Below are positions 19,268 to 64,000 of a stretch of DNA of 64,000 bases, piece by piece. The stretch spans positions 74,073 through 138,072 of the forward strand of contig JBBSVM010000003.1 of NCBI GenBank assembly GCA_038046785.1, in the 5' to 3' direction. The stretch is from Thermoplasmatota archaeon. GTDB lineage: Archaea > Thermoplasmatota > E2 > JACPAO01 > JAHFTW01. The position numbers and the translations under genes were made by a program. The notes under the pieces are model-generated. The model was given only the letters and a program-made list of their open reading frames with translations. It ran no database searches and had not been told where the DNA came from. Position 1 is the stretch's first letter. The number at the start of each line of letters is the position of its first letter.

Positions 19268-22200
19268 CGCAGCGGATTCGACGGCTCGATTCCGAGGCCA
19301 AGAATCAAGCCCTCGCGTCCATTCGCTTATTTATCAAGGCCCCTCTGGTGGGTCGCCTTCAGGACGGGACGCTTTGGCTGAGTCTGCTGGGAACGCACGA
19401 CGGTTCTTCCTCCGCCGCCAGCGCACGCCCTCCGTCCCCCCGACGCCGACCCCCGTCCTCGACCTGGAAGGCATCGGCCCAGTCAATGCCGCCAAGCTGG
19501 AGAAAGCGGGCATCGCCGACAGCGAACAGCTGCTCGCCGCCGACGTCGAGGCGCTCGCGAAACGGTCCAAGATTCCTCTCGGCTCCCTGAACGCCTGGCA
19601 GGACATGGCGGAGCTGGTTCGCATCGACGGCATCGGCCCGCAGTTCGCCGAAGTGCTGGTGCGCGCCGAGATCAATTCCATTGCGGAGTTGGCGCAGCAG
19701 GAACCCAAACCGCTTGCCGAGCGCGTGCAGGGCTACCTCGACGGCCTCGATTCCAACGTCATCGGCGTGAAGGTGACTCCGAAACTCACGAAGGCGTGGA
19801 TTCGCGAGGCGCGCCGATTCGCCCCCGGCCCGTCCGGAAAAGGCAAGGCGGCACTCGCCCGCGTCAAAGACCAACCTGAACCCGACGAGGGCGACCACGT
19901 TGCACCTCCCGTCGCCGTGGATGGCGCCAAGCTTGCCGCCGACGCGAAGCAGGAGGTCGAGCGTGGCTTCCTGCACCGATTCCTTCGCCGCGAAAAAGAG
20001 CACAAGGCCGAACTCCACGAGCCGCCAAGCACGCAGCGGCCCGGCCTCTTCCGCCGCTCGGGCAAACGCGCTCCCTCCGATTCCGAGGAGCCGCCTGCGA
20101 CCGCCGCTGACTCAAAGAAGGAAGCAAAGAAGGCGCAGAAGGAAGCGGCGCGCAAAGAGGCAGAGGCCGCCAAGAAACAGGCCCGCCTGCAAAAAGAAGA
20201 GGCGCGCAAGGCGAAGGCGGCCGACATCGCCCCCGGACTCATCCCCGTCGTCTGCGCCAACTGCCAGTTCACGTTCGGCGCCAAGCCGGCCGCCCGCAAG
20301 GTCACTTGCCCAAGCTGCCGGTCGCTCCTCGCCCTGGAGCCATCCGAAGAAACACCAATCTCAAAGCCGAGCCGCGAAGAGCGCGAGCAAGCCAAGCGCG
20401 ATGCCAAAGAGGCAAAGGAGCGCGCCAAAGCCGAAGCGCGAGATGCAAAACTCCAGGTCGTCCAAGAAGCGACGCCGGAGCTGGATGCCGCCGAAGACCG
20501 CGCCGAAGCGAAGAAAGCAAAGGAGCGCACCCGTGCGGAGGCAAAATCACAAGCTGCCGCCCAGAAGCTTGCGGCCAAGGAGGCCAAGCGCGCCGCACAG
20601 GCGGAGCGCGACGAGGCCGAAACGCAGGCGAAGCGCGAAGCGGCCGAGCGCAAGCAGGCGAAGGCTGCGGCCAAGGCGGAGGAGACTCCCGCAGAACCTG
20701 AGCCTGTGGGTTTCACGTTCACACGCGCCCAGCGGCGGGCCGACCGCAAGGCGCGCATCGCGGAAGAGGATGCCGCGCGCGCCGCAGCCAAAGCGGAGGC
20801 AAAGCCCGCGAAGGGGGACGACGTCGAACCGGAGAAGCCTCTCAGCGACAAAGCGCAAGCCAAGCTCGAGAAGCGCCGCCTCAAAGAGGAGGCGAAGGCC
20901 GCCAAGCTTGCCGTCAAAGCGGAGGCAAAGAAAACCAAGGATGCCGAAGCAACGTCCGCTGAGCCGGTGAGTGAGAAGGCGCAAGCCAAGCTCGAGAAGC
21001 GCCGCCTCAAGGAGGAGGCGAAGGCCGCCAAACGCGCCGCCAAAGCGGAGGCGAAGGCGAGCAAAGTCGCCGCGCCATCCGACGAAGATGCGCCCGAGAG
21101 CCCAAAAGAGGCGAAGCGCCGCGCCGAGCGCGAGGCCAAGGAGCGCGAAGAAGAGGCAGCGCGCCGGGCCAAAGCCGAGAAGCTCGCGGCCAAAGAGCGG
21201 CTGCGCGCCGAGCGCGAGGCGGCAGAAGCAGCGACGCTGGCCGGCTCCGGTATCTGGGCGCAAGGTGTCGCCCAGCCGCTTGCGACGCCCGGCGAAGGCA
21301 TCTGGGCGCAATCCATCGAAGCCCGCAACCAAACGTTCCAAGGCGCCGACAAGGCGGAACGCAAGCAGTTGGGCAAGCAGAAGCCGCGCCTCGAGGATGG
21401 CCGCAGTCCGTTTGCCCGCCTCGATGAAGACCGGAACCTCGGCGGAAAGCCGCGCCTGCCCGACGGCCAGAGCCCCTTCGCACGTTTGCCCGAAGATGAC
21501 GCGCCGCCAGCCCCTGCGCCGCGCCTGGTCGACGGCCGCAGCCCCTTCGTCCGGCTGCCCGAGGATGCGACGCCGGACTTCGAACGGATGCGCCTGTTCG
21601 GCCACCGCCCCGGCAGCGCCTACACCACGAAGGGCGGCTTCACCATCACGGAAGAGATCGTCGCCATCGAGACGCCCCCCACGCTGGAGCTCGGCACCCG
21701 CTCCGACCGGCGCCGACTCGCCAAAGAGGAGAAGGAGCGCAAGGAGGAGGCAAAGAAGCAAGCCAAGGTGGAGCGCAAGGCGGCGCTCGCCCGAGCGAAA
21801 GAGGAGGCGCGTGAACGCAAGAAAGAACGCGCCGCCGCACCAGCCGAGACGCCAGCTCCCGCGTCCCGCCGCGGGAAGCAGACGCCGGACGCCGCCGAGG
21901 CGTCCGAACCCGCGCAGGAGGCAGCTCCCGAGCGGCAGCCGCTTCTTGCCCGGCTCAAGCGCAAGCGGGCCGAACCGACCGAACCGGCCATCGTGGCATC
22001 GGATGACGATGCTGTCGAGCGCGTCCTGGCCGCCGAAGAAAAGCGCACGGCGTCGTGGAAGGCCGACGCCCCGATCGAGCCGGAACCCGCCCCCGAATCG
22101 GAGCCTGCCGCCGAGAAATCCTCTCGCCTACCGTTCCTGAAGCGCGCCAACGCCGAGGAGAAAGCTGCCCGCCTGGAGGAGGCTGCAGCGAAGAAGGCGC

Positions 22201-23342
22201 AAGCACAAGCCGAACGCGACGCGGCCCGCGAGCAGAAAGCCGCCGAGAAGGCAACGCGCCAACAGGAATTGGCCGAGCGTAAGGCTGAACAGCAACGCGA
22301 GCGCGAAGCGGCACGGGTGGCCAAAGCGCAAGCCAAAGAGGCCCCCGTCTCCGAGCCAGACACCGCCGAAACGGCGCCTTCTGCCCCCGACATTTCACAG
22401 GACGCGATTGAGGCGGCCCTCCTTGCCGAAGAGAAGCGGCAAGAGAAACAGCAGAAAGCGGACGAGTCGGCAAGCGCGGTGACGGAGAGCGCGAAGCAGG
22501 AGGCCGCAGCGGCAAAACTCCAGGCGCGCGCTGCGGCGAACGAGCGCAAGGCCGCCGAAAAGGCTGAGCGCGACGCCTTGCGTGCCAAAGAGGCCGAAGC
22601 GAAGGCTGCCCGCAAATCCGAGGCCGACGCCCAACGCGAAGCGGCCAAACTCCGCGCCAAGGAAGAAGCCGCTGAAGCCCAGGCCCAAGTTGAGCGCGTG
22701 AAGCGCGAAGCGGAGGCTGAGCGGGAGGCCGCCCGCCAGCGCCAGGCCGAAGAGAAGGCGGCGCGCCAAGCCGCGGCTGAAGCGCAGCGCGCCGAGCGCG
22801 CGGCCGAGGCGGAACGCGCCAAGCAAGCGCAGATTCAGGCCCGCGCCGATGCCCGCCTCGCCGCACTGCAAGCCAAAGAGCAGGCACGCGAGGCGAAGCT
22901 GGCGTTCAAACGGGAAGCAGACGCCCTCCGCGAAGCCGAGGCCGCGTTGAAAGAGTCCGAATCATCTTCTGTCGAGGCCCAAGAGGCGAGCCCCGAGGCG
23001 CCCCCGGTCCCCGACGAGGCTCGTGCCGAGCGCGACGCCGCAAAGGCGGCCAAGCGCGAAGCCAAGCGGCTCAAGCGCGAGGCGCGGCAGCAGGCCGAAC
23101 AAGAACGCCGTCTTGCCAAGGCGCTCGCGAAGGCGACACCAATCGAAGTCGAGGAGACCATCGAAGCGGCCGCCCTCGACGTCGAGCCGGAACCTGTCGC
23201 ACAGAAGCCGTCCACCGCAACCAAGCCGGCCCCCAAGCCTCGCGTGGTTCGCCGCGTCGTCGAGCGCGTCGTGGTCGAGCGCTCTGAGTTTGACCCGGAT
23301 TCGATTGACGCGCTTCTCAAGCGCCGTCAAGCCAAGGAGTAA
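19164..23342 (+). CDS. giant (≤1392 aa) protein with an N-terminal tandem helix-hairpin-helix (DUF4332-like) region, a C4 zinc ribbon, and very long E/K/A/R-rich charged-helix regions; unknown function
   Basis: GIGPVNAAKLEKAGI...IDGIGPQFAEVLVRAEI (HhH ×2). CANCQFTFGAKPAARKVTCPSC. Repeats DG[RQ]SPF[AV]RL[PD]ED ×3 and GIWAQ ×2. An internal ~131-bp tandem duplication at 20843–21036. A TATA-like cttatttatcaagg at ~19320 suggests the start may lie downstream of 19164. Confidence 0.75.
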   Translation: MGTASRFVSRPNPTRPAVPRPSVIWADFSNPGNPNAADSTARFRGQESSPRVHSLIYQGPSGGSPSGRDALAESAGNARRFFLRRQRTPSVPPTPTPVLDLEGIGPVNAAKLEKAGIADSEQLLAADVEALAKRSKIPLGSLNAWQDMAELVRIDGIGPQFAEVLVRAEINSIAELAQQEPKPLAERVQGYLDGLDSNVIGVKVTPKLTKAWIREARRFAPGPSGKGKAALARVKDQPEPDEGDHVAPPVAVDGAKLAADAKQEVERGFLHRFLRREKEHKAELHEPPSTQRPGLFRRSGKRAPSDSEEPPATAADSKKEAKKAQKEAARKEAEAAKKQARLQKEEARKAKAADIAPGLIPVVCANCQFTFGAKPAARKVTCPSCRSLLALEPSEETPISKPSREEREQAKRDAKEAKERAKAEARDAKLQVVQEATPELDAAEDRAEAKKAKERTRAEAKSQAAAQKLAAKEAKRAAQAERDEAETQAKREAAERKQAKAAAKAEETPAEPEPVGFTFTRAQRRADRKARIAEEDAARAAAKAEAKPAKGDDVEPEKPLSDKAQAKLEKRRLKEEAKAAKLAVKAEAKKTKDAEATSAEPVSEKAQAKLEKRRLKEEAKAAKRAAKAEAKASKVAAPSDEDAPESPKEAKRRAEREAKEREEEAARRAKAEKLAAKERLRAEREAAEAATLAGSGIWAQGVAQPLATPGEGIWAQSIEARNQTFQGADKAERKQLGKQKPRLEDGRSPFARLDEDRNLGGKPRLPDGQSPFARLPEDDAPPAPAPRLVDGRSPFVRLPEDATPDFERMRLFGHRPGSAYTTKGGFTITEEIVAIETPPTLELGTRSDRRRLAKEEKERKEEAKKQAKVERKAALARAKEEARERKKERAAAPAETPAPASRRGKQTPDAAEASEPAQEAAPERQPLLARLKRKRAEPTEPAIVASDDDAVERVLAAEEKRTASWKADAPIEPEPAPESEPAAEKSSRLPFLKRANAEEKAARLEEAAAKKAQAQAERDAAREQKAAEKATRQQELAERKAEQQREREAARVAKAQAKEAPVSEPDTAETAPSAPDISQDAIEAALLAEEKRQEKQQKADESASAVTESAKQEAAAAKLQARAAANERKAAEKAERDALRAKEAEAKAARKSEADAQREAAKLRAKEEAAEAQAQVERVKREAEAEREAARQRQAEEKAARQAAAEAQRAERAAEAERAKQAQIQARADARLAALQAKEQAREAKLAFKREADALREAEAALKESESSSVEAQEASPEAPPVPDEARAERDAAKAAKREAKRLKREARQQAEQERRLAKALAKATPIEVEETIEAAALDVEPEPVAQKPSTATKPAPKPRVVRRVVERVVVERSEFDPDSIDALLKRRQAKE

Positions 23343-23392: not shown

Positions 23393-23602
23393 TCACTTGG
23401 ACGGCGGGGCACTCGCTCCGCTCGGCCCCGCAGGCCGTTTTTCGGCATCGAGTTGGCGCAGTTGCCGCCGGTACTTGCCGTAGTTGTCCTCTGGGGAGAA
23501 CTTGGCGGGCGTGTTCTGCGTGGCCTTGCCGCCGCAGCGCGGGCAGGCCTCCGCCAGAGTGTAGTCCTGGCAGGTTTGGCAGAACTTCAGGCGGGCCTTC
23601 AT
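23393..23602 (-). CDS. nop10: H/ACA ribonucleoprotein subunit Nop10
   Basis: MKARLKFCQTCQDYTLAEACPRCGGKATQNTPAKFSPEDNYGKYRR.... It is the C-terminal part of the listed ORF 23393–24190. Confidence 0.85.
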   Translation of the reverse strand: MKARLKFCQTCQDYTLAEACPRCGGKATQNTPAKFSPEDNYGKYRRQLRQLDAEKRPAGPSGASAPPSK

Positions 23603-25223: not shown

Positions 25224-25280
25224 TCACCCCGCCCGAAGCTCCAAACCGCTCGGATTCATGCCTTGCCGGCCAGAACTCTT

Positions 25281-25511
25281 ATGGCAAGCAAACGCAAATC
25301 CGTAGGCGTGCAGCTCAAGGTCGTCCTGGAGCCGAGCGACGAGGGCGGCTACACCGTCTTCGTCCCAGCGCTTCCCGGCTGCATCAGCGAGGGCGACACC
25401 CGGGAAGAGGCCCTGCGCAACATCAAGGAAGCCATCGAGCTCTACCTGGAAGAGACCCCCGCCGACGCCGCGCTCCTTGACGGAGCCGAGGTCGCGGAGA
25501 TTCGGGTGTGA
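25281..25511 (+). CDS. hicB: HicB-family antitoxin (UPF0150)
   Basis: MASKRKSVGVQLKVVLEPSDEGGYTVFVPALPGCISEGDTREEALRNIKEAIELYLEE. Confidence 0.8.
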   Translation: MASKRKSVGVQLKVVLEPSDEGGYTVFVPALPGCISEGDTREEALRNIKEAIELYLEETPADAALLDGAEVAEIRV

Positions 25512-28231: not shown

Positions 28232-29488
<1,257 letters not shown>

Positions 29489-29505
29489 GGAGGCGCGCCG
29501 AGTTG

Positions 29506-29517
29506 AGGGAGTTTATC
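29506..29517. promoter_or_regulatory. TATA-like element between divergent icd and the histidine kinase gene
   Basis: gtttatcag / ctgataaac is ~25 nt upstream of the icd start at 29488. Confidence 0.4.
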
Positions 29518-29573
29518 AGGGTTGGGGAGGCACGCGCACTGGACCCATCGTCGCTGGGCCACGGACGAGGTTT

Positions 29574-31647
<2,074 letters not shown>

Positions 31648-31670
<23 letters not shown>

Positions 31671-52780: not shown

Positions 52781-53830
52781 ATGATTTCTTCTCGCTTCGC
52801 GGTGGCTCTTCTGGTGGGCGTTCTGGTGGCCGGCGCAGTGGCCATCAACCGCCTTCAGGATCGCCCCGAACGAGGCCCCGGCCTTGGGGGCGAGCTCCCC
52901 CGCAGCCCCGACAGTCGTCCAAACAGCAGCGCCGAGCCCGCGATTCTGCCGTTCGGTCTCGACGCATCGGGAGCCCTCGCCTTGCCAGAGGACGCGCGAC
53001 CGGACTATGGCACATTCTGGATTGGACCGTGGACGCTGCAATGGGGTTGGAAAGACCCAGACGAGCAGTTGGCCCGCTTGCGCGCCGCCAACGTGACGCC
53101 CGCCGTCCACCTCTACTATTGGGGCGATGGCATCCGGCCCGCCTGCTTCGACGTTGGGTGCGACGGCAAGGACACGGCCATGTGGCGTCAGCTTGCCCAG
53201 CAGACCGCCGAGCATCTTGCGGGCGGCCCTGCCGTCGTCTTCTTGGAGACCGAGTTCAACAAGGCGGACGTCGCAATGCATGAGCCGCTCGATGGCCACC
53301 TCGCCGACATCGCCACCATCCTCCAAGCCAACCCGGACCTCACCGTCGTCCTGTCGTTTGGCAACTGGTACCCAACCGCGTGGCCGACTTGGGACCGCGC
53401 GGCCGCGGCAAGCGACGCGGTCGGTCTGCAGGCCATCTCCGGTCTCACGCGCAACGACGCAAACCATGCCGCTTCCCTGGCGACCTCCGCCGTGGAAGGC
53501 GCCCGGACGCTGAACGGGCTGTTTGGCAAGCCGGTCTGGCTCGACGATGTTGCCGTTTCGTCTTGGCCGGAGCCGGAGGGGCTGGATGTGCAGAAGACCG
53601 CCCTCGATGGGTTCGCCCAGAGCCTTGAGGACCTGCGCGCGGCTGGCGTCCAGGCCATCATCTACCGCACGCTGTACGACACGCCGGCAATGGATGGTTA
53701 CTATGGCGAGGCGGAGCGTCACTTTGGTCTCGCCTGGGCCGACGGCGGCCTCAAGCCGGGCGGTGCGGCGCTGCTTTCTGCGCTGCATCCCGAGGCAACG
53801 CAAGCTACGCAAGGAGCTGCTTCGCAATGA
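52781..53830 (+). CDS. membrane-anchored putative TIM-barrel glycoside-hydrolase-like protein (tentative)
   Basis: N-terminal TM anchor. [11 protein letters not shown] and W/Y-rich motifs suggest a GH-like barrel. No confident family assignment. Confidence 0.4.
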
Positions 53831-54956
53831 CAAGCCGCTGGATTTCGCTCGTCCCCTCGTAAATCTCGGTGACCTTCGCATCGCGCATGAGCCGCTCGAC
53901 GACGTAGTCGGTGGTGTAGCCGTTGCCGCCATGCACCTGGACCGCCTGGTTCGTCACCCAAGTCGCCGTCTCGCTGGCATAGAGTTTGGCGCGCGAGCCC
54001 ATCTCGGGGGTAAGCGTGCCTGCATCGGCCGCCGCGGCCGCCTTGAGGACCAGAAGACGGGCCGCCTCGATGCGCACATCCATGTCGGCGAGCTTCCACT
54101 GGATGGCCTGGTTGGCGGCGATGGGTTTGCCGAACTGCTTGCGCTCGGCGGCATATTTTCGCGCCTCGTCGAAGCCGCGTGTTGCGATGCCGACCGCTTG
54201 CGCCCCGATGCTGATGCGGCTCGCGTTGAGGGTCGCCATGAGCGCCTTGAACCCCTCACCGGGCTTGCCCAACATGTTCTCCTTTGGGACCATCAAGTCG
54301 GTGAAGCTGAGGCGGGCAGTGTCGGATGCGCAGAGGCCAAGCTTGTGCTCCGCGCCATCCTTGTTGAATCCCTTCCAGGCGGCCTCGACGGCGAACAGGC
54401 TGATGCCGCGGTGGCCCGCGGTGGCGCCATGGTTGGGCTCGGTGCGGGCGGCGACAATGGCGGAACCGGCGTGGTTGCCGTTCGTGATGAACACTTTCGA
54501 GCCGTTGAGCCGATAGTGGTCCCCTTCCTTCGTGCCGGTCGTGGCCAGGGCTGCGACGTCGGAGCCGGCGCTCGGCTCGGTGAGGGCAAAGCAGCCCAGC
54601 CATTCCCCGGAAGCAAGTTTGGGAAGGAAACGCTCCTTCACGGCGTCGGTGCCGAACTCGACGATGGGGCTGGCGGCGACGCTGGTGTGCACTGCAACGG
54701 TGACCGATGTACTCGCGCAGGCCCACGCCAGCTCCTCGAGCATGAGGTTGTAGGCCACCTTGGAGAGCGGCGCACCGCCGTACGCTTCCGGAATGGTGGG
54801 GCCCAGCATGCCAAGCGCCGCCAGGTCGCGCAGGTTCTCGGCGGGGAAAGCGCCCGACTTGTCGAGCTTGCCGGCACGCTCTGCGATGGGGCCGCGCGCC
54901 AGCTCACGCACCGTCTTCTGGATCAGGCTCTCTTCCGGGCTGAGGCCGAACTCCAC
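53805..54956 (-). CDS. acyl-CoA dehydrogenase
   Basis: 383 aa; [12 protein letters not shown] and [13 protein letters not shown] motifs. Confidence 0.9.
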
Positions 54957-55696
54957 GCCGGTGCGACCCGGCGGCGCCTCTTGGCCGTTTGCCCCATCCC
55001 CTCCGTCTTGCGGTGCGCCTCCAACAAGGGAGCAAGCCCGCCCAGGATGCGGTTCTCGGCGCCGCGCAGGCGTTCCTCAAACGCGCTGCGGCCAATCCCC
55101 ATCGTCGCCGCCACATCCGCCGTCGTCGCCTGCCGTGGGGCGTTGTAGTAACCAGCACTTGCTGCGGCCTGGAGCGCTTCCGCCTGCTTGTCCGTGGGAG
55201 CATCGAGGGTGTGCGCCATCGACAGGAACAGCGATGCGAGGACGGTTTGCGGCTCCACGGTGCGGCGCCGCGTCACTTGGGTGGGCCAGCGCCGCGCCAA
55301 CTCGTCGAGCGCTGCCTGCTCCGGATGCGGTCCGCGGCCAGCTGGCCCAAACGCGACCGCGTCGTACGACTCCCACCCCGCCTTCACGCGCACCGGCTGC
55401 ATCCAGATGAAACGGTGCGCCTCAAGAGTGCGGCTCAGACTTCGCTCCGCCTCGACGTGCGGCTCCCAGACGATGACGCCGCCGCCGCGCAGACGCAGCA
55501 GACGAAGCGGCTTGAGGAGCCGGATGGCGGCCGCCTCGAATCCCGCCCACGCTGTGTCGGGAACCCGCACCTCGACCACCTCCAGCGTGTGGCCGCTCCA
55601 GCATTGCAATTCTGCCTGGGGCACGGCGCGGCTCAGACGAGCCAGAGGGCAGTCATGCTCGATGCGCACCGTGACCTGTCGAAGGGGGCCGTCCAT
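54923..55696 (-). CDS. transcriptional regulator with a C-terminal HTH_10 (bacterio-opsin-activator-type) DNA-binding domain
   Basis: [51 protein letters not shown]. Its stop overlaps the acyl-CoA dehydrogenase start. Confidence 0.6.
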
Positions 55697-55749: not shown

Positions 55750-56550
55750 TTACCTGCCAGCGAACGCCGGCTTGCGCTTCGCCAGAAACGCCGCCATGCC
55801 CTCTTTCTGGTCGGCAGTGCGGAACCCCGCGCCAAACGCCTCCGCCTCCAACTCCAGAGCAGATGCAAGGTCCAGGTCGAGACCCTCATCCACGAGCCGC
55901 TTCACGGACGCGACGGCCAGTGGGCCGTTGACAAGAGCAGCCTCCGCAATCTTGCGCGCCTCAGCAAGCAACGTGTCGTGCGGCACCACTTTGTCCACGA
56001 TGCCAAGCCGCAGCGCTTCGTCCGCCTTCACGGAATCACCCGTCATGAGAAGCCATTTCGCCACACCGGGGCCGGTGCGGCGCGGCAGCCGCTGCGAGCC
56101 GCCGAAGCCTGGCACGACGCCAAGCTTCACCTCGGGTTGGCCGACGACCGCTTTCTCGGAGGCAACGAGGATGTCGCACGCCATGGCGAGTTCGAGGCCG
56201 CCGCCCAGCGCGTAGCCGTTGATGGCGGCGATGACCGGGCCGGGAAAGTCGGCAAAAACTTGCAGAGCATCTTGGCCGGCGAGGCTGAACTCGCGTGCTT
56301 CGTCGGCGCCGAGGTCTTTCATGGCAGAAATGTCGGCGCCGGCGACGAACGCTTTGCCAGCGCCGGTGACGATGATGGCCTTTGCCTTGCCGTGGAGTCC
56401 TGTCACAGTTTCGTGCAAGACGTCCAGGACGTCGGCATTGAGGGCGTTGAGCGCCTCAGGTCGGTTGATGGTAAGGGTGGCAATTCCGTTGTCGATTTGG
56501 GAAAGAAGGCTTGTCATCGATTGCCGAAGTCTTTGCTGGGCTTGAACCAT
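55750..56550 (-). CDS. enoyl-CoA hydratase (crotonase family)
   Basis: IVTGAGKAFVAGADI...GYALGGGLELAMACD. Confidence 0.9.
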   Translation of the reverse strand: MVQAQQRLRQSMTSLLSQIDNGIATLTINRPEALNALNADVLDVLHETVTGLHGKAKAIIVTGAGKAFVAGADISAMKDLGADEAREFSLAGQDALQVFADFPGPVIAAINGYALGGGLELAMACDILVASEKAVVGQPEVKLGVVPGFGGSQRLPRRTGPGVAKWLLMTGDSVKADEALRLGIVDKVVPHDTLLAEARKIAEAALVNGPLAVASVKRLVDEGLDLDLASALELEAEAFGAGFRTADQKEGMAAFLAKRKPAFAGR

Positions 56551-56608: not shown

Positions 56609-57034
56609 ATGGCCTATCCGCCGATTACGCCGATTTCGCCGAACGAACCGGACCGTCAAACGTACGCCATCATCGGTGCGGCGCTGGAAGTCCATCGGAC
56701 GCTTGGAAGCGGATTCTTAGAACGAGTGTACCAGCAAGCCTTGGCTCGGGAGTTCGCCCTGCGCGGCATTCCGTTTGAGCGCGAAGTGGAGTTGCCCATC
56801 CCATACAAGGGCGAGCCGCTTGATTGCCTCTACAAAATTGACTTCTTGTGCTATGGTGAGGTCCTGGTTGAACTGAAGGCACTCTCTTCGACGGGTGGCG
56901 TAGAAGAAGCCCAGGTTCTCAACTACCTGAAGGCCAGCCGATTGGACGTGGCTCTTTTGTTGAATTTTGGGGCTGAATCGCTGCGAACCCGCCGGTTTGC
57001 AATGTCTCGGAACGCTTCGGCGCAATCGGCGTAA
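56609..57034 (+). CDS. GxxExxY-family protein (PD-(D/E)XK-like) in a lower-GC (~57%) segment
   Basis: AIIGAALEVHRTLGSGFLERVYQQALAREFALRGIPFEREVELPIPYKG...LVELKAL...VLNYLKASRLDVALLLNFG. Confidence 0.7.
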   Translation: MAYPPITPISPNEPDRQTYAIIGAALEVHRTLGSGFLERVYQQALAREFALRGIPFEREVELPIPYKGEPLDCLYKIDFLCYGEVLVELKALSSTGGVEEAQVLNYLKASRLDVALLLNFGAESLRTRRFAMSRNASAQSA

Positions 57035-57045
57035 TCGGCGGATCG

Positions 57046-57540
57046 TTAGGCAGCGGCAGGCTCGATTTCCACCATCACCGTGGTCGCCTCGACGTTCATG
57101 CCATCAGAGACATGGACCTTGACGACCTTCCCCGCCATCGGCGCCTTGAGGTCGTTTTGCATTTTCATCGCCTCAAGGACGAGGAGGATGTCGCCCGCCG
57201 CGACGATCTGACCTTCTTTCACCTTGACTTCGACAACTTTGCCTGGCATCGGGGGTTTGATGCGGCCATCCTGCTTGCGGCCGCCGGCGCGGCTGCGCGC
57301 CAATTCGGGACGGGCGCGGCGCACCTCGAGGTCGAGCGCGCGCGGGCCTTCGGAGACGACGCCGTTGCGGATGGTGAACTCGAACGTCTTGCCGCCGATG
57401 GTCACCTTGGTATGGCCCTTGCCAAGCGTCTGGACTTTGGGTTCGTAGCAGGTGTCGCCGATGCAGAACTTGGGCCCATCGGCGTGCTCCTCCATCGTGA
57501 CGAAGTGCTCGCGGCTGCCCAACTGGAAGCTGTAGCGCAT
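57046..57540 (-). CDS. accB: biotin carboxyl carrier protein (biotinyl domain)
   Basis: EAMKMQNDL biotinyl-lysine motif. Confidence 0.85.
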   Translation of the reverse strand: MRYSFQLGSREHFVTMEEHADGPKFCIGDTCYEPKVQTLGKGHTKVTIGGKTFEFTIRNGVVSEGPRALDLEVRRARPELARSRAGGRKQDGRIKPPMPGKVVEVKVKEGQIVAAGDILLVLEAMKMQNDLKAPMAGKVVKVHVSDGMNVEATTVMVEIEPAAA

Positions 57541-59138
57541 TAGTTCATTCCCCCAGCGGCTTCGCGGCGACCTTTCTGGCCCCAGGCACTCAGGCGGCGG
57601 CGGCCGAACTGGTCCACACCGACATTCTTGGCGGCGGACTGCTGGAACTGGTAGGACTTCTGCACCATGGAGTCGATGCCGCCTGGTTCGTGGGCGAGCG
57701 CTGCGGCAAGAGCGGCGAGTTTGACTTTCGTCTCTTCGCTGGCGGCCTCTTCGACACCCATGAGCTTGTCGAGAATTTTGCGCTCGTCAAGGAAGCGCGT
57801 TGTCATCTCGCCTTTGCAGAACGCCTCGTCCTGGAAGATGACCTGGTGCAGTTCGCGGTTGGTGACGAGGTTGCCGAGATCGTATTCGGCAAGCGCGCGG
57901 CGCATCTTGCGAATCGCCTCGGGCCGGTCGGCGCCATAGCAAATGAGCTTGGCGACCATGGAATCGTAGCTGCTCGGGATGGTGAACCCAGAGTAGAGGT
58001 AGGTGTCCACGCGCACGCCGTTGCCGTTAGGCGGGATGTGGCGGCTGATGGTGCCGGGCGTTGGCATGAACTTGTTCTTCGGGTCCTCGGCGTTGATGCG
58101 GCACTCGATGGCCCAGCCGCGGCGGCGCGCATCGACCCATTTCTGGTCGTAGCCAAGCGGTTCGCCGGCCGCGATGCGGATCTGTTCGCGCACGAGGTCC
58201 ACGCCGTACACTTGCTCGGTGACCGGGTGCTCGACCTGGAGGCGTGTGTTGACTTCGTTGAAGTAGAGCTGGCCGCCGCCCGGGGCGTCGGTGTCGAAGA
58301 GGAACTCGGCGGTGCCCGCATTCCAGTAGCCGACTTCTTTGGCGAGCTTGCAGACGGCGGCTCCGACGCGGTCGCGTTCCGAGGCGGGCAGCGCCGGGCT
58401 GGGCGCCTCCTCGATGAGTTTCTGGTGGCGACGCTGCACGGAGCATTCGCGCTCGCCGTAGTGGACGACGTTGCCGTGTTGGTCGGCGAGGAACTGGAAC
58501 TCGATGTGGCGCGGGCGCTGGATGAATTTCTCGATGAACACCTCGCCGCGCCCGAAGGCCGACTTGGCTTGGCGCTGCGTCGCCGCGAGAGCAGTGGCGA
58601 GCTCGGCTTCCGAGTGGACCACCTGCATCCCCATGCCGCCGCCGCCGAAGGCCGCCTTGATGATGACTGGGTAGCCGGTGAGCTTGACGACTTCTTGCGC
58701 CTCGGCGAGTGTTGCGACGAACTCGTCCTTGCCGGGCACGACCGGGACGCCCGCCTTGCGCGCGGCCACCTTGCTGGCAACCTTGTCGCCGAGGATGTCG
58801 ATGGGCTTGGGGGGCGGGCCGATGAACTTGATGCCGGCCTTCGCGAGTGCCGTGGCGAACTCGCTGCGCTCAGAGAGGAAGCCGTAGCCCGGGTGGACGG
58901 CGTCGGCGCCCACTTTCTGTGCCAACTCGACGATGGCGGGGATGTTGAGGTAGTTGGATTGGCTCGACTCATTGCCAAGCAGGTACGCTTCGTCGGCGTA
59001 GCGAACGTGCGGCGCCTTGGCGTCTTGCGGGGAATAGATGGCGACGGTCTGGATGCCGAGTTCGCGGGCAGTGCGCATGACACGCAGAGCGATCTCGCCA
59101 CGATTGGCGACGAGGATTTTCTTGAAGAGCGGTTTCAT
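57540..59138 (-). CDS. accC: biotin carboxylase subunit of acetyl/propionyl-CoA carboxylase
   Basis: MKPLFKKILVANRGEIALRVMRTARELGI...; ATP-grasp domain. Confidence 0.95.
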   Translation of the reverse strand: MKPLFKKILVANRGEIALRVMRTARELGIQTVAIYSPQDAKAPHVRYADEAYLLGNESSQSNYLNIPAIVELAQKVGADAVHPGYGFLSERSEFATALAKAGIKFIGPPPKPIDILGDKVASKVAARKAGVPVVPGKDEFVATLAEAQEVVKLTGYPVIIKAAFGGGGMGMQVVHSEAELATALAATQRQAKSAFGRGEVFIEKFIQRPRHIEFQFLADQHGNVVHYGERECSVQRRHQKLIEEAPSPALPASERDRVGAAVCKLAKEVGYWNAGTAEFLFDTDAPGGGQLYFNEVNTRLQVEHPVTEQVYGVDLVREQIRIAAGEPLGYDQKWVDARRRGWAIECRINAEDPKNKFMPTPGTISRHIPPNGNGVRVDTYLYSGFTIPSSYDSMVAKLICYGADRPEAIRKMRRALAEYDLGNLVTNRELHQVIFQDEAFCKGEMTTRFLDERKILDKLMGVEEAASEETKVKLAALAAALAHEPGGIDSMVQKSYQFQQSAAKNVGVDQFGRRRLSAWGQKGRREAAGGMN

Positions 59139-60025
59139 GGCTTCACCAGATTGGACGGATTGGATTCAGATTGACCAGATGGGGGAAGGAACGCCGGCAC
59201 CGCGAGGACGACGAGGGCCGCCTTCAAGGCGTCGAAGGGCAGGAACACCGTCGAGCCGAGGGCCACGGCGCGCGTCCAGGAGATTCCAAGTGTCGGCGCA
59301 AGGACCAGGACGCCGAGCGCGTGGACCATGGCAGTGGCGCCGAGCAGGACAATGAAGAGGTCCAAGGCGGGACGGCCGCCAGCGCGACGCAGCAACGCCC
59401 AAGCCAGCAGCGGAGCGAGCACCAGGAACGCGCCGGCAAACAGCCACGCGGCGTCGGCGCCGGACTGGTAGGCGCCGCCCGAGTCGCCGTCGGCGAACGT
59501 TCCGCCCGAGGCGAGGAAGAAGGCGCCGCCGGCAACGGCGACGAGGATGATAGTGAGAAGCCAAGAGGCGCGGGTGGCGAAGCGCGCGCCCCTTCCTTCG
59601 TTGCGAGCGCGAATGTAGGAGCCGACGAAGAGTGCTGCGAGCGGGAAGCCGAAAAGGTAGCCGGCGGTGAAACCGGTCCCCGCTGCGGCGTCCGGAACAA
59701 GGACGCGCCAGCGCTCGGCGGCGAAGAGGGAGTCGGGGTTGAAGCTGTCCGCGCTGGGGGCGAAAACATGGAGGCCGAGCGCCCCGGCGCCGAGATAGAT
59801 GAGCATCGATAGGATGCCGTAACGCGGGCCGAGCATGATGCCTGTGAGGAGGAACCCGACAGGTTGGAAGGTGAGCGGCACCGGCGTCCAAGGCAGGGGG
59901 ATGCTCAGTTGGGCCAGGAGGGCAGTGAGGCCGGCGAACCCGAAGGCGGCGCCAACTTTGGCAAGCCACGACGACTCCAGCGCCTGCGCGTAGAGGCGGG
60001 CCCGTGCGGTGCGGTACGCGCTCAA
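59135..60025 (-). CDS. bioY: BioY-family biotin transporter (ECF S-component)
   Basis: AQLSIPLPWTPVPLTFQPVGFLLTGIMLGPRYGILSMLIYLGAGALGLHVFA...TAGYLFGFPLAA. ATGA overlaps on both sides. Confidence 0.8.
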   Translation of the reverse strand: MSAYRTARARLYAQALESSWLAKVGAAFGFAGLTALLAQLSIPLPWTPVPLTFQPVGFLLTGIMLGPRYGILSMLIYLGAGALGLHVFAPSADSFNPDSLFAAERWRVLVPDAAAGTGFTAGYLFGFPLAALFVGSYIRARNEGRGARFATRASWLLTIILVAVAGGAFFLASGGTFADGDSGGAYQSGADAAWLFAGAFLVLAPLLAWALLRRAGGRPALDLFIVLLGATAMVHALGVLVLAPTLGISWTRAVALGSTVFLPFDALKAALVVLAVPAFLPPSGQSESNPSNLVKP

Positions 60026-63000
60026 CCCGCCACCATCGCCTTGCGGTCAAGCTCGGCGGCGCTCACCGCGAGAACCTTGCCATCGAGCATGAAGAACCGC
60101 ACGCCAACGCGGCCGGTCGGCCCCTCGACGGTGGCGCCGCCCGACCCATCCGGGATGACCTGGTGGGCGCGCAGGTCCGCCTTCAGGCCGACGCCGGCGC
60201 GCTTGAGAGCGGCTTCTTTGGCGGCCCACATGCAGGCCACCTCCGCCTTGGCGTCGGCGGCGGAGAGCAGGTGGCGCAGCTCGTTGACCGAGAAAGCCTC
60301 CTCCAGGAAGGCTTGCGGCCGCTCTTCGACGGTCTCCAAGTCGATGCCAATGGGAGCGTCGGAGAGGGCGGCCAGGGCGAGTCCGTCCCGGTGCGTGATG
60401 CTGAGCTGCAGCCCGGTGTCGGAGCCTTCGAGGAACAGCCGAGGCTTGCCCTTGTCGTCGCCGCGCACCTCGAAGTCGCGCAGGCTCGTACCGGGATGGG
60501 TGTCTACGGCCACTTGTTTGGCGGCGAGGCGGCCGGCGCGCCATTCGTCGGCCCGCTTGGCGACCGGGAACGCGCCGTGGATGCGAGACTCTTCCAGGCT
60601 GAAGTTGGCAGGCTCGCACGCCTTCGACTCGACGCGCACCGCGACGATGTGGGCGCGCTCCAGATGGGGCAGCGGGACGTCGGCGACATGGATGCGCAGA
60701 GCGTTCGGGGCGTGTGCAGCGCCGCCATTGGCTGCGGCACCGGGCGCGCTGGCGCTCCCCGTCGCAACCGGCGCCGAGGCGGGGCCGGTCTCCACCATGC
60801 TGAAGCCGGTGAGGCGGACCAGGACTGTGCCGTCGGAGGCGACCGCTTCCGCGTCGAAGGTGCGGTTGCCGGCCGGGTCGCGACCTGTAGGTTTGGCGCG
60901 CAAGCGCACATCGGGCGGCAGGATGGCGCTGTGCCATGCGACGCGGGCGATGCCGGCTGGGAGGCTCATGCGGTGCTCCGCCGCAAGGGTGCGCAGGCCG
61001 CAGGTCTGGAACAGCGCCTCGACCAGCATCGGCTCGGCCGCAAACGTAGCAGGCCCGGCACCGAAGTGGGGCTCGGTTGGGTTGCGGAACTGCGCCACCG
61101 CCTCGCCATCGAGGGGCCCGGCGAACTCCAGGACCTGGAAGCTCGGGCCGTGGAAGAAGGGCGGATAGATGCCGCCACGCTTGAGGCGTCGGTCGCAGAG
61201 CGGAACCGCCGCGCGGGGTGCAGTGGCGGGGACGGCCAAAGTGAGGGTCGCCTCGAAGTGCAGCTTCGGCTCGCCGACCGGCTTGCCGTCGGGGCCGTGG
61301 AATTGGCTGGTGAGCCGGCACGCCACCTTGACCTCCTTGCCCTCGAGCCGGGTCGCGGTGAGGATGCCGCGCTGCGGTGTCGCCTTGAGCTGCTTGAGCG
61401 GCAGGGCGAATCGGACATTCTCCGCCGCGACGACGCGGTGGTCGGCGGGGGCAAGAAGGAGCGCCGCCTCAGCGAACGCCTCGAGTCCGAAGACACCGGG
61501 AAGGTAGGGCACGCCGTCCACTTTGTGGTCGGCAAGGCCGGAGTCGCGCGCCTGATCCACGATGACGGTGGCGGTGAGGCTCTTGTCGGGGACGATGGAA
61601 TCGATGGATGAGAGCAGGCGGAAGCGTTCCCCTTTCTCGGTGAGGACCTGGTTGGCCACCTCGACGGCGAGGTCGAATCCCTTCTCGACCACTTGGCCGT
61701 CCGCGTCGATGGCGCCAAGCGTTCCCGCAACCACCGATTCGCGGATGCCGGGCTGGGCCAGCTCCGCGAGGAAGTGGCGCACGCCCTCGGCGGTCGGGAT
61801 GGGCGTCACGCCAGAGGCGTGCATGATCTGCAGGATGCTTCCCTTCGTCGCCATGCCCACTTCGCCCCACGGCCCCCACGCAATGGTGGTGCCGACGAGG
61901 CATTTGCGGCGCGCAGCCTCCTGTTTCACGGCCTTGGCGAGGTACTCGTTGGCGGCGGAATAGTCGGTCTGGCCGATGTTGCCAAAGCGGCCAGCCACCG
62001 AGCCGAAGGCGACGAGGAAGCTGAGTTTGTCGTCGCGGGTTGCCGCCATGAGGGCATCCCAGCCTTTCGCCTTGACATTGAAGACGGAATCGAACTGGGC
62101 GCGCTCCTTGGAGGCGAGGTCCTTGCTAATCTCCAGGCCGGCCGCGTGGATGACGCCGTCGATGCGGCCGAACTGGGCGCGCGCGAACGTGACCGCCTCG
62201 GCGACCGCTTTCGCATCGGCGACATCGACGGGGGCGTAGATGACCGTGGCACCGAGGGCCTGGAGCCGCTCCAGGTTGCGGTGGACTTCCGCCGCTTTCT
62301 GCTTGGGCGCGAGGGCCTTCTGGATGGTGACCGGAGTGACCTTCTCGCCGCGCGTTTTGAGGTCGGCAACAAGAGTGGTCTCCAACGCTTTCCAACCGGC
62401 TGCATCGAGCGCTGCGAGGGCTGCTGCGTCAGAGGTCAGCTCGGTGCGGCCAAGCAACAGGAGGTTGGGATTCTGCGCTGCGAGGGCGGCCAGCAACTCC
62501 ACGGTGATGCCCTGCGCTCCGCCCGAGACGACCAGGCTCTTGCGCTCGACATCGAGCTCTGCGGCAGGCAATTCCTGCGGCGCGACCTCGACGATGAAGC
62601 GGGCGCCGTCGCGGCCGTATGCGACCTCTGTGCGCTTGCCGCCGCGCGTCAGTTCGGCGAGGAGTTTCTTGGAGGCGTCGCCCGCCTCGGGGTGGATGTC
62701 CACCACTTTGACGACCGCTTGCGGCAGCTCCTTCTTGATGGCCTTGCCAAGCCCCGCGAGGGCGGCCATTCCAGCGTCGCGGACATGGTGCAGGCCGTGC
62801 GAGCCGTCCTGCCGCGTCACGACGAGGACGAACGTCCCCTCGGTAAGGCTTGCGCGGTGGAGTTTGGCAGCGTCGAAGAGCGGGCCGCAGCGCTCGAGCG
62901 CGGTCAAGCCGTTGCGGGAAGCGACCGCGACGAGGCCGACCGGAACCTGGCCGGAGGCGAGTTGATGGAGCGGGTTGAACCCTGCCGCCGTGAGGGCGTC

Positions 63001-64000
63001 GGCGATGTGGTTGTCGGGGTCGCCCAGCAGAAGGACCGGGCCGGGGCGCAGCGTGTTCGGTTCGCTGGGAAGGTCCTGGGGACGAACCTGCGGGATGCGG
63101 CGGAGAATGACGCCGGAACTGTCCACCGATTTTGCCGATGGTAGCGATGTCGGCATCTGCGAAATCGGTGCAATCGGTGGCTGGGCAGGGGCGGCAACGG
63201 GCGCACTGTTCTGCAGGACAAAGCCGGCGACCTTGCGCAGCGTGGGGTAGTCCTTGATTTGCAGCCCCTCGGCAAGCGGGATGTTGTAGGCGGTGCGCAC
63301 CTCGCCAAAGAGTTCCGCTTGCTTCACCGTGTCAATGCCCAAATCCGCCTCCATGTCGAGGTCGGGCTCCAGCATCTCGGCGGGGTAGCCGGTCTTGGCG
63401 GCAACGAGGTCGATGACTTTGCGCAGGACGGCAGCTTCGTCGCGGCCGCCGCCGGACGGAGTCGCAGATTTCACAGATTCGCTCTGCTTGTGAACTGCTG
63501 GGCTCTGCGCAATCTGCGGAATCTGAGACAGAGCCGGGGCAGGAGGCGTCGGTGCGACCCCGCCGATGCGGCTCTGCATGTACCCGGCCACTTTTGCAAG
63601 AGTCGGGTAGTCCTTGATCTGCACCGACTGGTCGGCAGCGATGCCGTAATGCTCGCGCAGCAGACCGAAGATTTCCGCCTGCTTCACCGTGTCAATGCCC
63701 AGGTCCGCCTCCATGTCGAGGTTGGGGTCGAGCAGGTCTTTCGGGTAGCCGGTCTTCTCAGCGACCACTTGGATGAGTTTGTCGAGGACATCGCCCGACG
63801 CCGCGACGGGAGCCGCCGGAGTCGCAGATTTCACAGATGGCGCAGAAACGGGAGTCTGCGGATTCTGCGGCATCTGCGGTTGGGTGAGCGTCGGAGTGGA
63901 GCCGCCTGCGGTCCGGGCCTGCATGTAGGCCGCGACCTTGGCGAGCGTGTTGTAGTCCTTGATCTGCACCGACTGGTCGGCCGCGATGCCGTAATGCTCC
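60022..64000 (-). CDS. C-terminal ≥1315 aa of a type-I PKS / PUFA-synthase-like megaenzyme: tandem ACP-like domains (≥3 in window), then KR, then PKS-type DH, then a C-terminal 4'-phosphopantetheinyl transferase domain; the N-terminus (KS/AT expected) is beyond the window
   Basis: ACP-like: DLDMEADLGIDTVKQAE[IL]FG repeated at ~100-aa period with Pro/Ala linkers. KR: SLVVSGGAQGITVEL...GRIDGVIHAAGL...YSAANEYL. DH: HKVDGVPYLPGVFGLEAFAEAA (HxxxGxxxxP). PPTase: GKPRLF...LSITHRDGLALAA...IGIDLETV...WAAKEAALKRAGVGL. Confidence 0.8.
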   Translation of the reverse strand, partial: EHYGIAADQSVQIKDYNTLAKVAAYMQARTAGGSTPTLTQPQMPQNPQTPVSAPSVKSATPAAPVAASGDVLDKLIQVVAEKTGYPKDLLDPNLDMEADLGIDTVKQAEIFGLLREHYGIAADQSVQIKDYPTLAKVAGYMQSRIGGVAPTPPAPALSQIPQIAQSPAVHKQSESVKSATPSGGGRDEAAVLRKVIDLVAAKTGYPAEMLEPDLDMEADLGIDTVKQAELFGEVRTAYNIPLAEGLQIKDYPTLRKVAGFVLQNSAPVAAPAQPPIAPISQMPTSLPSAKSVDSSGVILRRIPQVRPQDLPSEPNTLRPGPVLLLGDPDNHIADALTAAGFNPLHQLASGQVPVGLVAVASRNGLTALERCGPLFDAAKLHRASLTEGTFVLVVTRQDGSHGLHHVRDAGMAALAGLGKAIKKELPQAVVKVVDIHPEAGDASKKLLAELTRGGKRTEVAYGRDGARFIVEVAPQELPAAELDVERKSLVVSGGAQGITVELLAALAAQNPNLLLLGRTELTSDAAALAALDAAGWKALETTLVADLKTRGEKVTPVTIQKALAPKQKAAEVHRNLERLQALGATVIYAPVDVADAKAVAEAVTFARAQFGRIDGVIHAAGLEISKDLASKERAQFDSVFNVKAKGWDALMAATRDDKLSFLVAFGSVAGRFGNIGQTDYSAANEYLAKAVKQEAARRKCLVGTTIAWGPWGEVGMATKGSILQIMHASGVTPIPTAEGVRHFLAELAQPGIRESVVAGTLGAIDADGQVVEKGFDLAVEVANQVLTEKGERFRLLSSIDSIVPDKSLTATVIVDQARDSGLADHKVDGVPYLPGVFGLEAFAEAALLLAPADHRVVAAENVRFALPLKQLKATPQRGILTATRLEGKEVKVACRLTSQFHGPDGKPVGEPKLHFEATLTLAVPATAPRAAVPLCDRRLKRGGIYPPFFHGPSFQVLEFAGPLDGEAVAQFRNPTEPHFGAGPATFAAEPMLVEALFQTCGLRTLAAEHRMSLPAGIARVAWHSAILPPDVRLRAKPTGRDPAGNRTFDAEAVASDGTVLVRLTGFSMVETGPASAPVATGSASAPGAAANGGAAHAPNALRIHVADVPLPHLERAHIVAVRVESKACEPANFSLEESRIHGAFPVAKRADEWRAGRLAAKQVAVDTHPGTSLRDFEVRGDDKGKPRLFLEGSDTGLQLSITHRDGLALAALSDAPIGIDLETVEERPQAFLEEAFSVNELRHLLSAADAKAEVACMWAAKEAALKRAGVGLKADLRAHQVIPDGSGGATVEGPTGRVGVRFFMLDGKVLAVSAAELDRKAMVAG
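63300..64000. repeat. near-identical ~300-bp tandem DNA repeats encoding the ACP-like domains
   Basis: 63618–63657 is essentially identical to 63961–64000 (gatctgcaccgactggtcggc[a/c]gcgatgccgtaatgctc). agtcgcagatttcacagat recurs at ~63468 and ~63826. Confidence 0.8.

Follow-up and report, generated by a model that had tools for sequence, protein, structure and literature searches.

A probable Type R-like iterative synthase with a fused phosphopantetheinyl transferase and threonine carrier motifs in a carboxylase operon of Thermoplasmata archaea

Can an archaeon build acyl chains on a carrier protein? Archaea are reported to be without acyl carrier protein (ACP), ACP synthase and the machinery of fatty acid synthases (FAS) and polyketide synthases (PKS) (bioRxiv 10.1101/2024.07.05.601840), and the 'lipid divide' partly rests on this absence. 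The question is raised by a 64,000-nucleotide stretch of contig JBBSVM010000003.1 (positions 74,073 to 138,072 of the forward strand; assembly GCA_038046785.1, a Thermoplasmatota archaeon), called the window in the following: an earlier note, made from the sequence alone, had described the gene at its right edge as a fragment of an iterative type I PKS combining hallmarks of PfaA-type polyunsaturated fatty acid (PUFA) synthases and of enediyne PKSs (PKSE). We consider it probable that this gene supplies the C-terminal 44% of an iterative megasynthase that is related to PfaA, consists of a single polypeptide and is of the kind described in bacteria as Type R secondary lipid synthase (Shulse & Allen 2011, PMC3098273), and that it is native to a clade of Thermoplasmata.

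Read downwards from position 63999, the frame stays open for 1,325 codons to a stop at 60022-60024 and has no start codon within the window, indicating that the gene extends past the right edge, as the earlier note had stated. Pfam identifies, in this order, one truncated and two complete ACPs, a ketoreductase (KR), a PKS-type dehydratase (DH) and a fused Sfp-type phosphopantetheinyl transferase (PPTase). PP-binding matches with 57.8 bits (cut-off 20.8; full copies at residues 68-146 and 185-263), KR with 106.7 bits (cut-off 22.6; residues 490-712), PS-DH with 45.8 bits (cut-off 23.7; residues 812-1071) and ACPS with 45.1 bits (cut-off 25; residues 1146-1292); two further profiles remain under their cut-offs, PKS_DH_N in the DH region (20.5 bits) and 4PPT_N at residues 1146-1212 (21.3 bits, cut-off 27). 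Together with the catalytic motifs (Table 1), these matches bear out the KR, the PKS-type DH and the C-terminal PPTase of the earlier note. Its tandem ACPs were also seen correctly, and only their number, given as at least three, has to be corrected to two complete and one truncated copy in the window; three are found in the closest relative, L001. Residues ~290-489 have no profile match of their own and probably form the structural subdomain of the KR. The C-terminal domain is predicted to be an Sfp-type PPTase from the ACPS match and the motifs GIDLE (residue 1218) and WAAKEA (residue 1258), with KGKP at residue 1183 and LSITH at about residue 1200; its closest complete stand-alone relatives are PPTases of Elusimicrobia (36-38% identity). 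NCBI names proteins of this family merely 'SDR family NAD(P)-dependent oxidoreductase', and the top matches of a PDB sequence search are generic ketosynthase-acyltransferase (KS-AT) and KR domains, which do not separate PfaA, PKSE and modular PKS.

All domains of the synthase are under purifying selection: in comparison with L001, the ratio of non-synonymous to synonymous substitution rates (dN/dS) is 0.21 overall, 0.15 for the KR, 0.155 for the DH, 0.20 for the PPTase and 0.25 for the carrier region. Since, in addition, every full-length relative retains all catalytic motifs, we regard this as a working gene rather than a relic.

The architecture of the whole enzyme can be seen in its relatives. 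When one genome per GTDB species was scanned, the same protein was found in 20 assemblies, mostly labelled Thermoplasmata or Thermoplasmatota, with all 1,325 residues covered and 48-75% identity; the next-best locus, from a Gemmataceae bacterium, has 29%. The loci were covered with 10 kb on either side of the gene, and those of L001-L013 and L020 contain the full-length protein (3,017-3,183 amino acids by our own gene calls; 3,046 in L003). KS and AT domains, which the earlier note expected at the N-terminus, are present in these relatives, the N-terminal part of the window gene itself lying outside the window. Their domain order is KS, malonyl-acyltransferase (MAT), a second KS (KS2), three or four ACPs, KR, DH and PPTase, with three ACPs in L001 and L003 and four in the branch of L011-L013 and L020. 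In L003, the first KS carries DAACASS, HGT and GH and the acyltransferase carries GHSLGE and AAFHS, a combination that marks malonyl-type specificity. KS2 of L003 (residues ~1040-1620; L003:8198-9940) aligns best to FabF enzymes, including 2gqd, with ~245 residues preceding the FabF-aligned core. The Cys, His, His triad of 2gqd is matched, indicating that KS2 is not a Cys-less chain-length factor (CLF) and that each enzyme has two potentially active ketosynthases.

Is the gene truly archaeal? The contig encodes L44e (104.7 bits), aIF2-alpha (88.2 bits), an archaeal-type HTH_10 regulator and a two-subunit 2-oxoacid:ferredoxin oxidoreductase, and a Nop10-like motif (CxxC...CPxCG...KFSPED) is visible at ~23393-23570 (-), immediately downstream of the gene for aIF2-alpha. 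The GC content of the final 4 kb is 0.66-0.70 in comparison with 0.60-0.70 over the rest of the window, and the GC content at third codon positions (GC3) is 0.83 in the synthase and 0.82-0.85 in its neighbours. The synthase stop overlaps the first candidate start of the biotin transporter gene bioY (TTGA), bioY overlaps the biotin carboxylase gene accC (ATGA) and accC overlaps the gene for the biotin carboxyl carrier protein (BCCP; TAATG). The earlier note was thus right about the archaeal contig, its uniform composition and the translational coupling of the gene to its neighbours. Across the loci the order carboxyltransferase (CT), synthase, BioY, AccC, BCCP, enoyl-CoA hydratase, HTH_10 regulator and acyl-CoA dehydrogenase is conserved. 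The identities of the synthase and of the adjacent AccC to their window counterparts co-vary (Spearman 0.85, n=15), as expected if the whole locus was inherited vertically. In a second, more distant Thermoplasmatota clade, the synthase lies 4 kb from genes for archaeal L1, L10(P0) and P1. The shared gene order, the overlaps, the GC3 and the archaeal markers make it very unlikely that this region is chimeric or of bacterial origin; the synthase is a long-resident gene of a high-GC Thermoplasmata clade and no contaminant. The family as such is most probably an old acquisition from bacteria. A haloarchaeal origin, suggested by the label 'Halobacteriales' of L003 and L006, was ruled out by the median isoelectric point of 6.8 of 27 window proteins. 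Neither tRNA genes nor Rfam matches were found in the 64-kb window.

An acyl-CoA carboxylase is the constant companion of the synthase. AccC and BCCP are encoded downstream in every locus with enough DNA, and of the 11 loci with upstream DNA, nine have a CT gene directly upstream, with a CT partly detected in a tenth. This upstream CT of the relatives is of the PccB/MmdA type (TIGR01117, 783 bits, under the cut-off of 999), and in the window gene's own locus a CT would be expected beyond the right edge. Biotin carboxylase, BCCP and 12S CT, the set that is encoded together in such carboxylases, are accordingly all found, the first two in the window and the third in the relatives. In the related loci, an S15 peptidase gene follows the acyl-CoA dehydrogenase in the recurring gene order. 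We also considered that the cluster might encode a methylcrotonyl-CoA carboxylase of leucine catabolism; this is not supported, the CT being of the PccB/MmdA type and both the hydratase and the dehydrogenase belonging to generic short-chain types. Partners of the PfaB, PfaC or PfaD kind, which the earlier note suggested looking for, are absent from the families identified within 10 kb on either side of the gene in the 20 loci: these are the carboxylase, BioY, the hydratase, the dehydrogenase, the regulator, a metallo-beta-lactamase (MBL) fold hydrolase and a cupredoxin, with the carboxylase as the conserved partner.

The carrier domains match the PP-binding profile and have a threonine in place of the attachment-site serine: the motif DLGIDTVKQAE is present in every carrier domain of the window and in all repeats of those 18 of the 20 archaeal loci in which a carrier is still present. 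The threonine aligns with the phosphopantetheine-bearing serine of the solved ACPs 2ehs, 5y08, 2ava and 2liu, no alternative serine is conserved between the carrier repeats compared in the window. A low-confidence AlphaFold model (pLDDT 66), built for one ACP from a single sequence, has the threonine as the first residue of helix II. A first protein search gave 399 instances of the motif, 395 of them with threonine. Because such a search is biased towards proteins that have exact words in common with the query, the census was repeated without the carrier domain: the KR-DH region was compared, without a word index, with 1.84 billion representatives, and the best 150 were taken. Of these best 150, 77 have solely threonine-type motifs, 22 have serine motifs alone (mostly modular PKSs of 6-7.5 thousand amino acids), 8 are mixed (mainly loose motif matches outside carriers) and 43 are carrier-less fragments. 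A few of the serine cases are variants of the same family, for example with DLGVDSVKQAE. On these numbers, threonine is the norm across the whole Type R-like family. Its codons across the loci are ACC (44), ACG (11), ACT (4) and ACA (2), each one step away from a serine codon; the use of all four synonymous codons indicates that threonine is selected as such.

The simplest reading is that the invariant threonine of DLGIDTVKQAE serves as the phosphopantetheine attachment site, because the enzymes have no other carriers, a PPTase invariably forms part of the protein or lies next to it, and serine occasionally replaces the threonine: the rare serine in an otherwise identical motif suggests that both residues fill the same role. 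We found no literature on threonine-linked phosphopantetheine, which is weak evidence as most subscription journals were outside the search, and we present the threonine carriers as a lead, with no claim to priority.

Does the enzyme produce a saturated chain? A tblastn search with the PfaD-like enoyl reductase (ER) of relatives found no match in the 64-kb window or in the 20 loci. There are related proteins with an ER. P0122 (L083 5006-15736, GCA_030614005.1) has ER, KS, AT, KS2, ACP, KR and PPTase in one polypeptide of 3,576 amino acids, its N-terminal reductase domain being of the PfaD/NMO type; it has no match to a DH profile, and would have nearly all the domains of a FAS-like enzyme, plus the fused PPTase. 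At L080 the gene is split into a pair, with a PfaD/NMO-type ER encoded in the upstream gene (P0130, a cluster-mate of this pair, has 3,540 amino acids). The ER domains in P0122 and in the L080 pair show that the family holds both ER-containing and ER-less forms. BCCP, AccC and CT adjoin the ER-bearing relatives too (L083/L081), and the adjacency to the carboxylase thus recurs in this distant lineage. P0085, a close relative of P0122, is labelled 'Asgard group archaeon' by NCBI, and ER-including forms occur on contigs with Asgard-labelled relatives; for L083 itself, which may be archaeal, only a sub-threshold RPB9/TFS-like zinc ribbon was found.

Taken together, we propose the following mechanism. 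The flanking acyl-CoA carboxylase, with CT encoded upstream and BioY, AccC and BCCP downstream, would make malonyl-CoA, for which BioY would supply the biotin. The fused PPTase would prime the enzyme's own carrier domains, presumably on their threonine, so that the system would be self-sufficient in a host without ACP or ACP synthase. KS, AT, KR and DH would then act iteratively. As no ER is encoded in the protein or found nearby, the chain is expected to be unsaturated (a conjugated polyene or an enoyl/hydroxy chain) rather than a saturated fatty acid; from malonyl-CoA supplied locally, the enzyme would probably make an unsaturated or polyene acyl chain. A wider proposition has two parts, namely that the Thermoplasmata clade, and probably other archaea, run a native, carrier-dependent malonyl-CoA megasynthase and that the family phosphopantetheinylates threonine in archaea and bacteria alike. 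We put it forward tentatively, as possible but slightly more doubtful than not.

Several other explanations were weighed. The most serious is that the enzyme is a genuine FAS, which receives its ER in trans from elsewhere in the genome, or uses the neighbouring acyl-CoA dehydrogenase in reverse, and makes a fatty acid for membrane or storage lipids that is either saturated or mono-unsaturated. This is consistent with the N-terminal ER of P0122 and the L080 pair, relatives of the same architecture, and with the conserved acyl-CoA dehydrogenase and enoyl-CoA hydratase genes; we nevertheless regard it as unlikely, given the lack of an ER homologue in the window and the 20 loci, and given that bacterial Type R clusters are also described without ER. 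Acyl-CoA dehydrogenases, moreover, use esters of CoA and not of ACP and normally oxidise. It could also be argued that carriers with threonine for serine cannot be primed and that the gene is a decaying or carrier-dead relic: the canonical serine is missing from every carrier, and no member of the family has a known product. This is hard to reconcile with a dN/dS that is low in the ACP region and the PPTase as well as overall, with the intact motifs of the full-length relatives, with a threonine held through four codons and found as the only type in 77 of 150 representatives, and with a PPTase that is always fused or adjacent; the few DLGVDSVKQAE members suggest the same role for both residues. 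We consider a relic decidedly improbable.

Two known enzyme classes come closer in domain content. The gene could belong, as its PfaA subunit, to a canonical PUFA synthase (PfaABCD, for products of the eicosapentaenoic/docosahexaenoic acid type) with PfaB, PfaC and PfaD encoded elsewhere: PfaA (TIGR02813) is the best NCBIfam match, and tandem ACPs followed by KR and PKS-type DH are in the PfaA order. Yet even a full-length relative remains under the cut-off (930.5 versus 1010.1), a second KS stands between AT and ACPs, the carrier motif is DTVKQAE instead of DSIKRVE, no PfaD-type ER was found in the window or the 20 loci, and the conserved neighbours are carboxylase genes and not pfaBCD, all of which makes a PUFA synthase highly improbable. 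We give equally little credence to an enediyne-type PKSE producing the polyene precursor of a warhead: the catalytic domain types, the C-terminal PPTase and the failure to find an ER are the same, but there are three to four ACPs instead of one, an extra KS and ~3,050 instead of ~1,900 amino acids, the neighbour families identified are not those of an enediyne cassette, and the nearest relatives belong to the Type R synthases found in Acidobacteria, Elusimicrobia and Chloroflexota. Lastly, bacterial PKS DNA might have been misjoined to an archaeal contig, by chimeric assembly or a binning error, as the enzyme family is overwhelmingly bacterial and the labels of the relatives are inconsistent ('Halobacteriales' for L003 and L006, 'bacterium' for L010). 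The earlier note had named this as one of two ways in which its reading would fail, the other being spurious profile matches, and the profile matches have proved real. Against it, the same gene and neighbourhood occur in 20 independently assembled Thermoplasmatota genomes, the junctions from the synthase to the S15 peptidase recur in assemblies from different studies, neighbouring genes overlap by 1-4 nt, GC3 has no break, HTH_10, L44e and aIF2-alpha are on the contig, the clade-2 synthase adjoins archaeal ribosomal stalk genes and the best bacterial match is merely 29-35% identical; we consider a misjoined contig extremely improbable.

Some points do weigh against a native Type R-like synthase that makes an unsaturated chain on threonine carriers. 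To our knowledge, threonine at a carrier site is without precedent, and in E. coli ACP a Ser-to-Thr change reportedly blocks modification by AcpS. The genome could have an ER gene at another place, and the carboxylase (with its CT of the PccB/MmdA type), hydratase and dehydrogenase neighbours could be a housekeeping set for the catabolism of propionate or amino acids. No thioesterase or other release enzyme is among the families identified near the gene, whole genomes not having been scanned for one. The 5' part of the window gene (KS, MAT, KS2 and the first half of ACP1) is placed beyond the edge by analogy with relatives that are at most 75% identical. The assignment to the Type R kind matches the 2011 description of these synthases, with which the archaeal protein was compared rather than with the reference proteins directly. 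Relationships within the family were read from a neighbour-joining tree of the KR-DH region that is midpoint-rooted and without support values: in this tree, the window relatives form one archaeal clade, sister to the second Thermoplasmatota clade, the other PPTase-fused lineages are deep, and unfused proteins of Elusimicrobia and of Acidobacteriota/Chloroflexota fall into separate groups.

Table 1. Predicted domains of the synthase gene and genes adjoining it, in window positions
Feature	Position	Strand	Basis and remarks
3' 1,325 codons (~44%) of a probable iterative PfaA-like (Type R-like) synthase of ~3,030-3,050 amino acids	60022..63999	(-)	Open frame, Pfam/NCBIfam, full-length relatives
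C-terminal half of an ACP, clipped by the window edge	63901..63999	(-)	Residues 1-33; EHYGIAADQSVQIKDYNTLAKVAAYMQ repeats the C-terminal half of the next ACP
Carrier domain A, DLGIDTVKQAE	63562..63798	(-)	PP-binding match; Thr104 = ACG, 63688-63690
Carrier domain B, DLGIDTVKQAE	63211..63447	(-)	PP-binding match; Thr224 = ACG, 63328-63330
Ketoreductase	61720..63132	(-)	Pfam KR; GGAQGIT 62503-62523, DYSAAN 61948-61965
PKS-type double-hotdog dehydratase	60685..61602	(-)	PS-DH; HKVDGVPYLP 61498-61527, FHGPSF 61138-61155
Fused Sfp-type 4'-phosphopantetheinyl transferase	60025..60582	(-)	ACPS, 4PPT_N; KGKP, SITH, GIDLE, WAAKEA
BioY biotin transporter component	59135..60025	(-)	Pfam BioY 79.6 bits; downstream of the synthase in most loci
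Biotin carboxylase (AccC) of acyl-CoA carboxylase	57540..59138	(-)	Pfam and NCBIfam
Biotin carboxyl carrier protein (BCCP)	57046..57540	(-)	Biotin_lipoyl 66.9 bits; synteny
Short-chain enoyl-CoA hydratase (crotonase), conserved neighbour	55750..56550	(-)	Profile match, synteny
HTH_10 (archaeal-type) transcription regulator, conserved neighbour	54923..55696	(-)	Profile match, synteny
Acyl-CoA dehydrogenase, conserved neighbour	53805..54956	(-)	Profile match, synteny

Further genes accompany the synthase in some of the loci. In the window, a gene of the PDDEXK_3 nuclease family (PD-(D/E)XK, 130.7 bits; 56609-57034, +) lies on the opposite strand between the genes for BCCP and enoyl-CoA hydratase; it is not among the families conserved across the loci and therefore looks like a local insertion. 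Several archaeal loci encode a plastocyanin-like cupredoxin upstream of CT (F5; L003 2021-2473 and equivalents) and, downstream on the opposite strand, the MBL-fold hydrolase (F8; L003 19619-20554 and equivalents), neither of which was detected in the window. An MBL gene is also found near the synthase in L081 and L083, and it is conceivable that this hydrolase is the enzyme of chain release. A 230-amino-acid open reading frame (ORF) without Pfam or NCBIfam match is situated between CT and synthase in L003 (4387-5079) and L010 (4334-5020) only.

Elsewhere in the window, the ORF at 19164-23342 (+) encodes a Lys/Glu/Ala-rich, highly repetitive and probably coiled-coil protein of 1,392 amino acids, with an N-terminus that by eye resembles a helix-hairpin-helix and with one CxxC...CxxC motif; this ORF accounts for the extreme AT skew (0.52) that is seen at 20-22 kb. 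This archaeal contig also has a HicB-like antitoxin gene (25263-25511, +) and a hybrid histidine kinase/response regulator gene (29370-31670, +).

What would follow for archaea? At least 20 Thermoplasmatota species genomes encode a type I synthase with its own PPTase, maintained by selection within an operon that probably makes malonyl-CoA, and if the proposed function is correct, this contradicts the view of archaea as lacking ACP-based chain synthesis. The invariant threonine points either to a new form of phosphopantetheinylation or to a new use of carrier-like domains. In the former case, threonine phosphopantetheinylation would be an undescribed post-translational linkage, formed by a dedicated co-encoded or fused PPTase, and carriers of this kind would be orthogonal to the ordinary PPTases. 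This question concerns the whole of a large family, with representatives in many soil Acidobacteria, Chloroflexota and Elusimicrobia. For uncultured archaea, the synthase also offers a concrete candidate, and one that can be cloned, for the synthesis of acyl chains or polyenes.

A literature search found nothing relevant on archaeal PUFA-synthase or PKS genes (most subscription journals were outside this search), and the main texts of the papers on Angelarchaeales and Yaplasmales have no mention of polyketides, fatty acids, carboxylase or acyl carrier protein. The archaeal clade, the PPTase fusion, the embedding in a carboxylase operon and the threonine carriers appear undescribed in the searchable literature, while the enzyme family has been known since 2011. 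Of the undescribed pathway that the earlier note envisaged, the archaeal occurrence hence stands and the novelty of the enzyme does not. Nor is this a hybrid of PfaA and PKSE, as the hallmarks named in the note might suggest, since it has its place in a Type R-kind family catalogued in bacteria, with KS2 between AT and the ACPs. A screen for C-terminal motifs flagged a fused PPTase in 27 of 150 family representatives, indicating that this fusion is recurrent in the family and not unique to the window gene.

Among known systems, the Type R secondary lipid synthases are the closest. They are described from Acidobacteria, Elusimicrobia and Chloroflexi (Koribacter, Solibacter, Elusimicrobium, Roseiflexus) as KS-MAT-CLF-ACP(3-6)-KR with a downstream PPTase that carries the motifs x(G/D)xP (P1a) and hShxH (P1b'); their product is unknown, the clusters are described without ER, the Koribacter cluster contains an acetyl-CoA carboxylase gene, and Archaea are not mentioned (Shulse & Allen 2011, PMC3098273). 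The archaeal synthase shares the domain order, with two and a half ACPs before the KR in the window and KS-AT-KS2-ACP(3-4)-KR in the full-length relatives; it shares the dedicated PPTase, here a C-terminal fusion whose KGKP and LSITH fit P1a and P1b', and also the link to a carboxylase. Its best non-archaeal matches, of the same architecture and with ~30-35% identity, come from the same phyla (Koribacter, Terriglobales, Sulfotelmatobacter, Bryobacteraceae, Elusimicrobia, Caldilinea and Anaerolineales). We assign the synthase to the Type R kind because architecture, associated PPTase and bacterial relatives agree. There are clear differences too: the Type R PPTase is a separate gene, whereas the archaeal one is fused; the archaeal gene, unlike Type R, is embedded between carboxyltransferase and bioY-accC-accB; a PKS-type DH follows the KR, while the 2011 description lists none; the counterpart of the Type R 'CLF' keeps the full Cys-His-His triad; and the host is an archaeon instead of a bacterium, with the bacterial members at only ~30-35% identity.

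PfaA has the backbone of KS, MAT, tandem ACPs, KR and PKS-type DH in common with the archaeal synthase. TIGR02813 is the best NCBIfam family with scores under the cut-off of 1010.1 (268.2 bits for the window fragment, 930.5 for full-length L003), and the archaeal synthase differs in its extra KS, its fused PPTase, a neighbourhood in which PfaB, PfaC and PfaD were not found, and the carrier motif, DTVKQAE in comparison with DSIKRVE of a classical PfaA (P0111).

Enediyne PKSEs (SgcE, CalE8, DynE8) are proteins of ~1,900 amino acids with the order KS-AT-ACP-KR-DH-PPTase, a single ACP, no second KS and no ER; they prime themselves with their C-terminal PPTase, are encoded in the enediyne cassettes of actinomycetes and make a conjugated polyene. 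The catalytic domain types, the C-terminal PPTase and the failure to find an ER are shared with the archaeal synthase, which differs by its three to four ACPs, its additional KS and its ~3,050 amino acids. Genes of the enediyne cassette (E3, E4, E5 and the E10 thioesterase) are not among the identified neighbour families, no dedicated profile having been run. For the expected product, PKSE is the best chemical analogy.

The only archaeal system in this comparison is the ketothiolase/DUF35 complex of Sulfolobus acidocaldarius, which serves ACP-independent fatty acid synthesis on CoA esters with no carrier protein (bioRxiv 10.1101/2024.07.05.601840). Both this complex and, if our reading is correct, the Thermoplasmata synthase are routes by which archaea could build acyl chains, the latter differing in being carrier-dependent and in bringing its own PPTase.

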